A stretch of 32,000 bases of DNA from Copranaerobaculum intestinale (GTDB taxonomy: Bacteria > Bacillota_I > Bacilli_A > Erysipelotrichales > Erysipelotrichaceae): NCBI RefSeq assembly GCF_009831105.1, contig NZ_WUUQ01000006.1, positions 30,001 through 62,000 of the forward strand, in the 5' to 3' direction. Below the pieces are notes generated by a model. The model was not told the DNA's origin. It saw only the letters and a list, made by a program, of their open reading frames with translations, and did no database searches. A program made the translations under genes and the position numbers. Positions 29,321 to 32,000 of the stretch are shown one piece after another. How positions within the stretch are numbered: position 1 is the stretch's first letter; the number at the start of each line of letters is the position of its first letter.

Positions 29321-30868
29321 ATGAGTAAGATTGTAAGTTTAGAAGAAGCCATTTCCATGATCAAAGACGGTTCAACGCTGGGAATCGGCGGATTTATCGG
29401 TTCCGGGCATCCGCAGGAATTCTCAGTTGGTCTGGAAGAATCCTTCTTAAAGAGCGGTCATCCCCGTGATCTGACGATCATGTTCTCGGCTGGTATCGGA
29501 GACGGTACCGATCGGCTGGGACTCAATAAAATCGGCCATGAGGGACTGTTAAAACGGATTATCGGCGGTCATTGGGGACTAATTCCAAAGCTGCAGCGTT
29601 TGGTCTTTGACAATAAGGTGGAAGGATACAACCTGCCGCTGGGAACCATATCTCTATTGTTTCGTGAAATAGCCGGACACCGCCCCGGAGTTTTCACAAA
29701 AGTTGGTTTGAAAACATTCATTGATCCGCGTTTAGAAGGTGCGAAGATGAATGAAAGAACCAAAGACGATCTGGTGGAGCTGACCCATGTTAATGGTGAG
29801 GAATATCTGCTTTATAAAGCGTTCCCGGTAAACTATGCGCTGATCCGTGCAACCTATTGTGATGAAGAAGGTAATGCGGTGATGGATAAAGAAGCCGCAA
29901 CTTTAGATTCCTTGGCGATCGCCCAGGCAGCGAAAAACTCCGGAGGCAAGGTTCTGCTTCAGGTGGAAAAGGTAGTACAAAACGGAACCTTAGATGCACG
30001 CAAAGTAAAAATTCCAGGTATCTATGTTGATGCAATTGTAATATCACGTCCGGAAAATCATTGGCAGACATACCAGGGCTATTACAACCCTGCTTTCAGC
30101 GGTGAATGCCGGGTGCCTGTGGATTCCATCGAACCAATGGCACTCAATGAGCGTAAGATCATTTGCCGCCGGGCTGCGATGGAGCTCGATCCAAGGGCGA
30201 TCATCAACCTGGGCATCGGAATGCCGGAAGGAATCGCGAACGTAGCCAATGAAGAAGGAATGCCGGGTCTAAAGCTGACGGTTGAGACCGGCGGTATCGG
30301 CGGTGTACCGGCGGCAGGAACCGCATTCGGTGCAGTTACGAATCCGGAATGCATCATTGATCAGCCGTATCAGTTTGATTTCTATGACGGCGGCGGTCTG
30401 GATCAGGCATTCTTAGGCTTGGCGGAATGTGACAAAGAGGGAAATATCAATGTATCACGCTTTGGACCGAAGATTGCCGGCTGCGGCGGATTTATCAATA
30501 TCACGCAGACAACTCCGGTAGTTATTTACTGCGGTACCTTTACATCCAAAGGATTGAAGCTGGATATCAAGGATGGCAAGCTGAATATTCTGCAGGATGG
30601 CAGTATCATGAAATTCAAAAATAAAGTAGAGCAGGTAACCTTCTCAGCTGAATTTGCGAAGGAACAGCATCAAAAAGTTCTGTATATCACGGAACGATGT
30701 GTATTTGAACTGCGTCCGGAAGGCTTGACCCTCACGGAAATTGCCCCGGGAGTGGACTTAAAGAAGGATATTCTGGGACATATGGAATTTGAGCCATTGA
30801 TCGCAAAGGATTTAAAACTGATGGATGAGCGCTTATTCCGAGAAGCAAAAATGGGTTTGATAAAATAA
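29321..30868 (+). CDS. Acyl-CoA:acetate CoA-transferase of the propionate CoA-transferase (Pct/YdiF) family
   Basis: Collinear with C. propionicum Pct as I recall it: HEGLLKR.I.GHW, PGVFTKVG..TFIDPR, ALIR.TY.DE.GN, SGG.V..QVE.VV..GTLD.R.VK.PGIYVD, YDGGGLD..FLGLAECD.EGNINVSRFGP.IAGCGGFINITQ and YITERCVF. Confidence 0.88.
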   Translation: MSKIVSLEEAISMIKDGSTLGIGGFIGSGHPQEFSVGLEESFLKSGHPRDLTIMFSAGIGDGTDRLGLNKIGHEGLLKRIIGGHWGLIPKLQRLVFDNKVEGYNLPLGTISLLFREIAGHRPGVFTKVGLKTFIDPRLEGAKMNERTKDDLVELTHVNGEEYLLYKAFPVNYALIRATYCDEEGNAVMDKEAATLDSLAIAQAAKNSGGKVLLQVEKVVQNGTLDARKVKIPGIYVDAIVISRPENHWQTYQGYYNPAFSGECRVPVDSIEPMALNERKIICRRAAMELDPRAIINLGIGMPEGIANVANEEGMPGLKLTVETGGIGGVPAAGTAFGAVTNPECIIDQPYQFDFYDGGGLDQAFLGLAECDKEGNINVSRFGPKIAGCGGFINITQTTPVVIYCGTFTSKGLKLDIKDGKLNILQDGSIMKFKNKVEQVTFSAEFAKEQHQKVLYITERCVFELRPEGLTLTEIAPGVDLKKDILGHMEFEPLIAKDLKLMDERLFREAKMGLIK

Positions 30869-30881
30869 TTATGAATATAGA

Positions 30882-30918
30882 AAAAGTACCTTTATAAAAT
30901 GATTTGAGGTACTTTTTT
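30882..30918 (+). terminator. Rho-independent terminator of the butyrate operon
   Basis: AAAAGTACCT-(15 nt)-AGGTACTTTT, with the T-run extending to 30918. Confidence 0.8.
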
Positions 30919-30958
30919 ACCGATTTTACCAAAACATCTACCGATCATGCCAAATAGC

Positions 30959-30987
30959 TTTACGCATTATATGTTTCTTTTTATAAT
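30959..30987 (+). promoter_or_regulatory. Sigma-A type promoter of the threonine-aldolase leader
   Basis: TTTACG (30959-30964), 17-nt spacer, consensus TATAAT (30982-30987). Confidence 0.55.
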
Positions 30988-31180
30988 GTAGACGTAAAGA
31001 AGCCATAGAGCTTCTTGAAAAGAAAATCGCTTATAGAAATGGATGACAGGCATTCCGGGTCATCATAATAAACAGGAGAATGATGTGCGTCCAAGCATAT
31101 AAGTGATGGTCTTATCCGAAAGTTGAAATTGAAGGAAAATAAGAAAATTGGGAAAATAGGCTTTCGGTAAGACATTCGTG

Positions 31181-31240
31181 AATATACAGTCCAGCGGATA
31201 GAGGAAGTATGGAAGAAGGCGCTGGGCTGTATATTTTTTT
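31181..31240 (+). terminator. Strong intrinsic terminator inside the 5' leader (attenuator)
   Basis: AATATACAGTCCAGCG (31181-31196) pairs with CGCTGGGCTGTATATT (31220-31235), up to 16 bp with one G-U pair and a 23-nt loop. T7 run at 31234-31240. It lies 87 nt upstream of the start codon. Confidence 0.65.
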
Positions 31241-31326
31241 ATCTGTTTTTTTATGAAAATATACCGTATAATAAAGGCAGTTTGTAAAAGCATGTAAAAT
31301 ATCAAGAAATTGAAAGGGGTGTTTGG

Positions 31327-32000
31327 ATGATCAGCTTTAAGAATGATTACAGTGAGGGTGCCTGCCCACAAATTATGCAGGTTCTTCAGGAAACAAATGA
31401 ACAGCAGTCTGATGGCTATGGACTGGATCCCTATTGTGAAGAAGCAAGGGCGTTAATTAGAAAAAAGCTGGGCTGTGAAAATGGTGATGTTCATTTCTTT
31501 GTGGGCGGTACACAGGCCAATCAGACGATTATCGCCTCCGTACTGCGTCCATATGAAGCGGTGATTGCCGTTGACAGCGGTCATATCAATGTTCATGAAA
31601 CCGGAGCGATCGAAGCAACCGGACATAAAGTGCTGACAGCTTTGGGAAAAGCGGGTAAAGTACTGCCAAAGGAAGTGCAGCAGATTGTTGATGCGCATAC
31701 TGATGAACATATGGTGAAACCGGCAATGGTGTATATTTCTAATGCGACAGAAATCGGTACGGTTTATACTAAGGAAGAATTACAGGCGCTTCGTAAGGTA
31801 TGCGATGAAAACGGTCTTTATCTGTTCATGGATGGAGCCCGGCTGGGAGCGGCAATGAGCGCTTGTGACAATGATGTAAAGTGGACTGATTATCCCGATC
31901 TTGTTGATGTGATGTATATCGGCGGTACTAAAAACGGCGCCTTATTTGGAGAGGCGTGTATCATCATGAATGATGCTTTAAAAAAAGATTTCCGCTATCA
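31327..32000 (+). CDS. Threonine aldolase / beta-eliminating lyase family PLP enzyme; C-terminus lies outside the window
   Basis: ATG 31327 with SD AAAGGGG. Translation reads MISFKNDYSEGACPQIMQVLQETNEQQSDGYGLDPYCEEARALIRKKLGCENGDVHFFVGGTQANQTIIASVLRPYEAVIAVDSGHINVHETGAIEATGHKV...YIGGTKNG (PLP-lysine region). The frame stays open to the window edge, so it is absent from the ORF track. Confidence 0.75.
   Translation, partial: MISFKNDYSEGACPQIMQVLQETNEQQSDGYGLDPYCEEARALIRKKLGCENGDVHFFVGGTQANQTIIASVLRPYEAVIAVDSGHINVHETGAIEATGHKVLTALGKAGKVLPKEVQQIVDAHTDEHMVKPAMVYISNATEIGTVYTKEELQALRKVCDENGLYLFMDGARLGAAMSACDNDVKWTDYPDLVDVMYIGGTKNGALFGEACIIMNDALKKDFRY

Follow-up and report, generated by a model that had tools for sequence, protein, structure and literature searches.

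What lies in the 458 nucleotides (nt) between the last gene of a butyrate cluster and a threonine-aldolase-family gene of Copranaerobaculum intestinale, and does it have any bearing on how the aldolase is expressed? The question is raised by a 32,000-nt stretch of contig NZ_WUUQ01000006.1 (assembly GCF_009831105.1, positions 30,001 to 62,000 of the forward strand), hereafter the window, in which all positions given without a contig handle are counted. The gap separates the CoA (coenzyme A)-transferase gene (515 amino acids) from the Beta_elim_lyase/threonine-aldolase-family gene (342 amino acids). An earlier interpretation made from the letters alone, here called the sequence-only reading, held that the leader of the latter gene is a cis-regulatory RNA, which would bind a metabolite or, by way of GAA repeats, a protein. 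The gap does contain a genuine, selected, structured non-coding RNA of ~250 nt with its own promoter and terminator, and units of the same build precede the same gene in other genera. It is a familiar kind of element, a terminator-containing leader or a small RNA (sRNA), that belongs to no described RNA family. As to its role, we lean towards an unclassified, aldolase-linked leader RNA that acts as a factor-gated attenuator, a reading to which we give a probability of roughly 40%. The parts of the RNA are as follows.

30959 to 30987, plus strand: promoter P1, TTTACG-17-TATAAT, with 10 of 12 matches in a promoter scan.
30997 to 31016, plus strand: hairpin P1, AAGAAGC / GCTTCTT with a 6-nt loop, from folding.
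31026 to 31107, plus strand: long irregular hairpin P2 of 22 pairs, from folding and alignment.
31026 to 31035 with 31098 to 31107: outer stem of P2.
Internal loop of P2, 4x4: GAAA / AGCA.
31040 to 31045 with 31088 to 31093: middle stem of P2.
31051 to 31056 with 31076 to 31082: upper stem of P2, with a variable apex above it.
31109 to 31173, plus strand: hairpin P3, a stem of 13 base pairs (bp; 31109-31122 with 31161-31173) with one bulged T.
31174 to 31179, plus strand: single-stranded linker ATTCGT between P3 and terminator T, with an identity of 1.00 in all relatives.
31180 to 31240, plus strand: intrinsic terminator T, a 17-bp stem (31180-31196 with 31220-31236).
31197 to 31219: loop of terminator T, 23 nt, 87% purine.
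31234 to 31240: U7 (T7) tract of terminator T.

The 341-nt leader folds at -87.7 kcal/mol against -65.2 +/- 4.6 kcal/mol for shuffled sequences (z = -4.9), and none of 100 shuffles equalled it. Much of the architecture described in the sequence-only reading was recovered: the promoter scan returned the near-consensus promoter some 340 nt before the start codon (its 3' end is 340 nt from the aldolase ATG at 31327), the 13-bp long-range helix enclosing a 38-nt loop is exactly as it was drawn, and the very stable terminator with its T7 tract has a free energy of -25 kcal/mol. This terminator has the G+C-containing stem and U tract of an intrinsic terminator and is atypical only in its 23-nt loop; a simple terminator scan with a loop limit of 8 nt skipped it. 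The two small hairpins required more revision. The AAGAAGC/GCTTCTT hairpin is real, although it begins and ends four positions earlier than the 31001-31020 first given, and the GATGAC/GTCATC hairpin is present in the window at 31042-31064, not 31044-31066, but is lost in relatives, where the conserved structure is the longer hairpin P2.

Selection on this RNA was assessed with syntenic contigs found by protein look-up, whose aldolases are 86-99% identical to that of the window; they provide, with the window, 11 distinct versions of the gap (the ten further ones from metagenome contigs) in about seven lineages. The whole RNA is 0.83-0.86 identical to the window in these relatives, hairpin P1 0.90-0.95 and hairpin P2 0.84-0.90, as against 0.53-0.80 for the P2 apex; no part of the RNA is better conserved than P2. 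Third codon positions of the crt, CoA-transferase and aldolase genes are 0.58-0.72 identical, and the 23-nt spacer from the downstream TATAAT block to the ribosome-binding site only 0.22-0.35. Promoter P1 behaves as would a sigma-70-type promoter, its TTTACG being kept in 11/11 versions and its TATAAT in 10/11 (L086 has TATACT), while the spacer drifts, its first half being the variable one.

The helices are likewise maintained. All 7 pairs of hairpin P1 are invariant in the 11 sequences, with variation confined to the loop, whilst the 22 pairs of P2 show one-sided changes that keep a wobble pair at 4 positions and one double change from C-G to U-A. The P3 stem is maintained through shifted bulges and through changes of U.G to U-A and C-G to U-A, and in terminator T the 3' arm never varies, every change falling on the 5' arm and pairing being kept in each with a single exception. 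In the 11-sequence alignment (A3) the 60 pairs of the four hairpins are paired in 99.5% of cells, compared with 32-47% for slid partners; double changes are seen at 4 pairs, and many one-sided changes preserve wobble pairs. The covariation score was reached by none of 500 shuffles, though the covariation is modest as the relatives are close. The conservation and covariation of helices, on which the sequence-only reading had made its proposal depend, are borne out for the four hairpins, and the RNA and its helices are under selection because identity exceeds the third-codon and spacer rates, pairing is kept and covariation goes beyond that of shuffles.

The same comparison does not favour the GAA repeats as a protein-binding site. 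The P3 loop of the window (38 nt, 81% purine) carries GGAAAATA twice, at 31134 and 31151, and GAA triplets start at 31119, 31127, 31133, 31137, 31146 and 31156, successive starts being 4-10 nt apart. In relatives the second GGAAAATA copy is missing and the triplet positions are not maintained; the loop is 0.55-0.67 identical, close to the third-codon rate, and drifts about neutrally with only its length (36-40 nt) and purine content (0.76-0.81) being kept. In TRAP and HutP attenuators the binding sites are regularly spaced, conserved NAG, GAG or UAG triplets that overlap the antiterminator or terminator, and the irregular and unconserved triplets of the window are unlike them.

No known family accounts for the RNA. 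The sequence-only reading had failed to match it by eye to known riboswitch motifs, and the Rfam (15) covariance-model scan agrees, with no match in the window at gathering score; when 30860-31400 (541 nt) was scanned permissively, the matches did not rise above chance level (E 0.4-10). Nothing relevant was found at either threshold in 20 aldolase-homologue loci or in the leaders of other genera. When the leader was compared by BLAST with its own genome and 40 relatives, the search returned its own locus and three matches of 32-36 nt (E 2.6e-4 to 6.6e-4) that are regarded as chance, and nhmmer against 83 other loci, of which 80 are aldolase-homologue loci, returned nothing. A two-block exact pattern had 0 matches in the public genome contig collection and 5 in public metagenome contigs, all chance and inside a coding region, and phage and plasmid collections yielded no match by BLAST. 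Covariance models of the whole RNA (R1) and of the P1-P2 core (R2) revealed no second copy in the genome, nor, bar one chance intragenic match, any in 149 family genomes, 80 aldolase-homologue loci and 148 order genomes, the family and order sets together representing ~220 other distinct genomes. A whole-genome scan for similar large-loop, purine-rich terminators found none besides T, and hence no regulon; of the hairpin and T-run sites of the genome with loops of 12-40 nt, no other has a stem as long or a loop as rich in purines.

The closest parallels among described attenuators are the T-box (RF00230), TRAP, PyrR and HutP systems, which likewise place a promoter, a long structured leader and an intrinsic terminator before an amino-acid-metabolism gene, and P2 is a long irregular hairpin of the size of a T-box Stem I. 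However, RF00230 has no match in the window at gathering score nor in the 541-nt scan at E up to 10, the T-box sequence (AGGGUGGNACCGCG-like) is not present, and there is no antiterminator helix that shares the 5' arm of T and bears a UGGN bulge. The window also differs from these attenuators in having a promoter-like element after its terminator.

Two further candidates were tried and rejected for the RNA as a whole. A CsrB/RsmY-like sponge was discarded as CsrA was not found in the genome (98.9% complete) and the 7 GGA counted by eye are about what a rough base-composition estimate gives by chance. A 6S RNA (RF00013) was discarded as the genome has its 6S RNA elsewhere (C4:594399-594553) and the unit folds as four separate hairpins and not as a rod.

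What ties the RNA to the aldolase is found outside the window clade. The other genera compared were drawn from a family sample, and statements that something was not found apply to the genomes searched. The order CoA-transferase then aldolase recurs in at least 11 other lineages of the family, with gaps of 51 to about 1030 nt, and a unit of promoter, RNA and terminator precedes the orthologous aldolase in at least six other genera. The order of parts (promoter, RNA of 120-300 nt, terminator, TATAAT, ATG) is seen in L114, L115, L116, L117, L119, L121 and L006/L113, and in a minimal form in L128. These leaders, described below as K-turn (kink-turn)-like, lie at the following positions.

L119, 1195 to 1292
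L116, 1190 to 1283
L121, 1201 to 1297
L114, 2697 to 2794, minus strand
L115, 1256 to 1339
L117, 1264 to 1346
L006, 1596 to 1691 and 2186 to 2281
L128, 930 to 1006

Their core consists of a hairpin, TATCACAC..GTGTTGATA (H1), and the motif GUG[G/U]AGA-stem-loop-NNN-GAGAU. Double changes occur at 9 of its 18 pairs, and its covariation score is 0.44 compared with 0.20 in shuffles. The pattern ..GU-G-[G/U]A-[stem-loop]-NNN-GA-G-AU.. appears, by its sequence, to fit the K-turn consensus. A covariance model of this core (R3), built from the leaders of the other genera, matched 7 of 150 family genomes, each at one locus (one genome having two tandem copies), and none of 73 genomes of a neighbouring family. 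Every match is upstream of and co-oriented with an aldolase orthologue, including where the upstream neighbour is not a CoA-transferase (L006/L113, L114). The RNA is linked to the aldolase, therefore, because orthologous units precede the same gene in other genera whatever lies upstream.

The window itself has no R3 match at E up to 5, nor do seven versions of its clade (L085, L086, L094, L096-L099), compared with 50-86 bits for all the others. Neither the TATCACAC..GTGTTGATA hairpin nor the GUG[G/U]AGA-stem-loop-NNN-GAGAU motif is present in the window clade. A possible relic of the K-turn, UAGAGAU, is found in relatives of the window, which itself reads UAGAAAU. In position the window agrees with the other genera, having a single locus directly upstream of and co-oriented with the aldolase, with a terminator and then TATAAT. 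Its flanks are furthermore colinear with theirs, the shared elements being the stretch before P1, TTTAC[AG]-17-TATAAT, a 5' start of GTAAAGA[AG]GC, the terminator 3' arm with GGCTGTAT-T-run-GTCTGTTT, and CGTATAATA. The terminator stems are alike (ACAGTC..CG / CG..GGCTGT in outline; ACAGTCCAGCG/CGCTGGGCTGT in the window and ACAGTCAACG/CGTTGGCTGT in L006), and the terminator loop is purine-rich across genera, though it is AAAAGAAAA (9 nt) in four genera and 23 nt in the window. This flank similarity is weak (nhmmer E 0.02-3 in a 2.7-kb search) and rests on colinearity. On these sequence comparisons the window RNA is best seen as an orthologous unit with a strongly remodelled interior. Direct homology of the window leader to that of L006 was rejected, as the local alignment is no better than that of shuffles.

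Several observations on the leaders of other genera are recorded here in their own right. In L006, L117, L121 and L128 the loop AAAAGAAAA is identical though the stems covary; the A-tract that immediately precedes the stem is repeated in this loop, which is also complementary to the U-tract, which in three of the four has a C that matches the loop (UUUUCUUUU). The Longicatena contig L006 (= L113) has the whole unit (promoter, RNA, terminator and TGTTATAAT) tandemly duplicated at 1496-1870 and 2085-2465, ~590 nt apart; the copies are nearly identical and only the second is followed by an aldolase. The 264-nt gap before the aldolase of L127 holds a TTTACA promoter, an RNA of ~150 nt, the terminator AAAACGGCTGATCCATTCGGCTGTTTTTTT and then TATAAT, and is possibly a third leader type with neither the window core nor the K-turn-like core.

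The region that follows the terminator matters as much to the argument as the RNA itself, and with the outer boundaries of the unit it is made up as follows.

29321 to 30868: CoA-transferase gene, the last gene of the butyrate cluster.
30881 to 30918, plus strand: intrinsic terminator that closes the upstream butyrate operon, AAAAAGTACC ... GGTACTTTTT, and bounds the RNA unit on its 5' side.
31241 to 31285, plus strand: post-terminator block, ATCTGTTTTTTT, 5 variable nt, AATATACCG-TATAAT-A.A.GCAGTTT.
31268 to 31273: downstream TATAAT, inside the post-terminator block.
31312 to 31329, plus strand: ribosome-binding site GAAAGGGG and aldolase start codon.
31327 to 32000, plus strand: threonine-aldolase-family gene, 342 amino acids, continuing to 32355 beyond the end of the window.

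The downstream TATAAT noted in the sequence-only reading exists, six positions before the 31274-31279 it was given. It is invariant in 11/11 versions, within a post-terminator block that is 0.86-0.89 identical, and a TATAAT precedes the aldolase in every orthologue examined, with or without a leader, at 21-29 nt from the ATG outside the window clade; within that clade the distance is 48-54 nt, as against 23-29 nt in the K-turn-like leaders. It is a -10 element only, with no -35 element, whereas promoter P1 is near consensus. The aldolase is probably transcribed from its own promoter at 31268, because this TATAAT never varies among the 11 versions and leaderless orthologues have one too. The claim that the RNA regulates the aldolase in cis thus stands in part: a selected, structured RNA with its own promoter and terminator is linked to the aldolase across genera, but the gene probably has a promoter of its own.

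The attenuator reading combines these two promoters. A strong sigma-A-type promoter P1 would drive an RNA of ~247 nt, with a predicted transcription start near 30994, which would fold as four independent hairpins (P1, P2, P3 and T) and end at the strong terminator at 31240. By default, P1 transcripts would stop at T and the gene would be served by the weak, -10-only promoter at 31268, whilst under some condition read-through of T would add P1-driven transcription to the aldolase. Control of the gate would fall to a trans-acting factor with either the conserved P1-P2 core or the purine-rich P3 and T loops as its recognition site; such a factor would be needed, in place of a self-contained metabolite switch, because no RNA pairing competes with the terminator. 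Adjacency to and co-orientation with the aldolase in every genus, the strength of P1 compared with the -10-only promoter and the conserved terminator loops all support this reading.

A number of observations weigh against it. Folds of truncated transcripts and duplex searches found nothing that competes for the T 5' arm (31180-31196), yielding only a 5-bp GAAUG/CAUUC alternative and pairings driven by the U-tract, and in transcripts truncated before the T 3' arm the 5' arm stays unpaired. That the 5' arm varies while the 3' arm is invariant is the opposite of what a shared antiterminator predicts. The downstream TATAAT is universal, including in L107 which has no RNA, so the gene does not need P1, and the scenario foreseen in the sequence-only reading, in which the transcription start site lies downstream of the terminator, may hold. 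The failure of all three models to connect the interiors of window and other genera is unusual for a leader that binds a ligand or factor, and no candidate gating factor was identified, neither CsrA nor Hfq being found in the genome. An alternative 14-bp G.U-rich hairpin (31193-31247) does exist, in which the 5' part of the terminator loop (AGCGGATAGAGGAA) pairs with the U-tract and the conserved ATCTGTT; it could form only in read-through transcripts.

Several of these points would be expected if the RNA were a stand-alone sRNA, an explanation that we rank only narrowly behind the favoured one. In this case a stable ~247-nt RNA would in every instance end at T and would work in trans, through base pairing or protein binding; the aldolase would be transcribed only from the 31268 promoter and the adjacency of the two would be inherited synteny. 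A consensus promoter, a very strong terminator and four independent hairpins with no alternative fold all suit such an autonomous unit, as does the invariant -10 element after T that is followed by an unconstrained spacer. It would also seem that the unit is a separable module: the sister lineage L107, whose CoA-transferase is the closest among lineages that retain the gene order (90% identical, the aldolase being 66% identical), has the same genes about a gap of only 85 nt that contains the operon terminator, TATAAT and ribosome-binding site but no RNA. It is typical for sRNAs to be conserved within a genus and to have an interior that turns over fast from one genus to the next, the invariant linker (31174-31179) and conserved loops could be seed regions, and the T 5' arm is less constrained than the 3' arm.

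Against a stand-alone sRNA is the strict tie of the unit to one downstream gene in all genera that carry it, with any upstream neighbour, and with a terminator that in most genera ends only 6-38 nt before the aldolase -10. The seeds of Firmicute sRNAs are usually C-rich, and this purine-rich RNA is C-poor (13% C); the apparent want of Hfq also counts against it. A crude whole-genome RNAduplex target scan, which ranked the aldolase start region 1569 of 1977, carries no weight either way, as the method builds long looped duplexes. Should the RNA nevertheless be an sRNA, it would be a well-defined candidate in a group without Hfq or CsrA where RNA regulators are almost uncharted.

A bolder variant of the attenuator, which we think unlikely, is that the units of all these genera form an undescribed, gene-specific leader class of this Erysipelotrichaceae-like family that gates termination before the aldolase; several of the genera would have a covarying K-turn-like sensor, and the purine-rich terminator loop would be invariant. 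In the window the sensor would have been replaced while the promoter, terminator and target were kept. If true, no bacterial threonine aldolase would have been reported under such control before, and the window would be a natural case of sensor swapping on a fixed expression platform. According to a 2021 paper, riboswitch control had not been found for any bacterial threonine aldolase (PMC8216456). The structure described there, in the GLY1 3' untranslated region of Saccharomycetaceae, is, like the present unit, a conserved structured RNA that accompanies a threonine aldolase gene, but it is eukaryotic, lies in the 3' untranslated region, is built on a four-stem junction and is related neither in sequence nor in position (PMC8216456). 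As a new cis-regulatory family the K-turn-like leader may have more to recommend it than the window RNA, and the broader set of aldolase leaders with the K-turn-like core is the more attractive target.

Beyond the question of class, the locus offers a conserved, Rfam-unmatched RNA unit tied to threonine aldolase in several genera of gut bacteria, and in most genomes that carry the unit the aldolase is just downstream of the butyrate operon. If the unit does gate the gene it would show how these butyrate producers time the cleavage of threonine to glycine and acetaldehyde, and would constitute a new attenuator family with a genus-specific sensor part.

A classical metabolite riboswitch, in which binding of a ligand such as threonine, glycine or serine to P1-P3 decides whether T forms, is improbable. 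It is true that a promoter, structured leader and terminator precede an amino-acid-metabolism gene, that the nucleotides of the P2 internal loop are highly conserved and that the related leaders of other genera have a covarying K-turn-like core; a K-turn is contained in several riboswitch classes. The RNA, however, has no Rfam match even permissively, no multi-helix junction and no overlap or alternative pairing between a would-be aptamer and T, and its fold differs between genera that carry the unit before the same gene, all of which speaks against the metabolite-binding RNA of the sequence-only reading. With one copy per genome there is no regulon, the minimal L128 form (one K-turn-like hairpin, a small hairpin and a terminator) is more like a protein site than an aptamer, and most aldolase orthologues elsewhere are leaderless. 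The glycine riboswitch (RF00504) serves glycine-metabolism genes in Firmicutes and one adjoins an aldolase homologue in L019, but it has no match in the window and in L019 it lies downstream of the aldolase, before the next gene. That riboswitch (L019:3573-3648, 58 bits), in an uncultured Clostridiales genome, presumably controls the next gene.

We see as little to recommend the suggestion that the RNA itself regulates nothing and is an insulator or a relic of a K-turn leader, now transcribed only as a spacer, with a terminator that keeps upstream transcription from reaching the aldolase promoter. The core is absent from the window clade save for the possible UAGAGAU relic in relatives, and the P3 loop evolves neutrally, as a relic might; but hairpins P1 and P2 are far more conserved than neutral sites, unpaired nucleotides included, the promoter hexamers are maintained, and the upstream operon is already terminated at 30881-30918. 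The idea that the region is coding, or antisense to a coding sequence, is hardly credible: the plus-strand mini open reading frames at 31041-31070 (9 codons + stop) and 31080-31106 (8 codons + stop), as leader peptides, either shift frame (L094) or no longer have their Shine-Dalgarno sequence, GGAG having turned into AGAG, GAAG or CGAG, and show no abundance of Thr, Gly or Ser, while the minus-strand, type-I-toxin-like frame (MSYRKP...) for which the RNA would be an antisense partner, though open in all versions and hydrophobic in appearance, changes frame between lineages through 1-nt indels, has no Shine-Dalgarno sequence and is open because the purine-rich plus strand leaves few stops on the opposite strand.

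Some further features of the locus and its genes remain to be described. The aldolase directly follows the terminal CoA-transferase in the window (29321-32000) and in L107, L112, L115-L117, L119, L121, L125, L132 and L133; its adjacency to the butyrate cluster suggests a metabolic link, in which threonine gives acetaldehyde and glycine and feeds acetyl-CoA and butyrate. The window protein matches Pfam Beta_elim_lyase (1.6e-33), and its close relatives are labelled low-specificity L-threonine aldolase in their source records. The terminator of the upstream butyrate operon retains its stem in relatives whilst its loop is rebuilt, and a second T-run is situated 3' of terminator T. A CodY-box-like match (11/15, by eye) at 31246-31260 was dropped as it covers the least conserved 5 nt. 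The spacer of the downstream promoter is more conserved than that of promoter P1, and a small perfect palindrome, TATAC-C-GTATA (31262-31272), overlaps the conserved downstream -10 and may be an operator of that promoter. Finally, in L086 (4286-4906), L094 (2867-3487) and other relatives with 86-90% aldolase identity, a gene for an Fe/Mn superoxide dismutase stands between the aldolase and mgtC; the window species (window/L001) is without it there, and mgtC comes directly after the aldolase.

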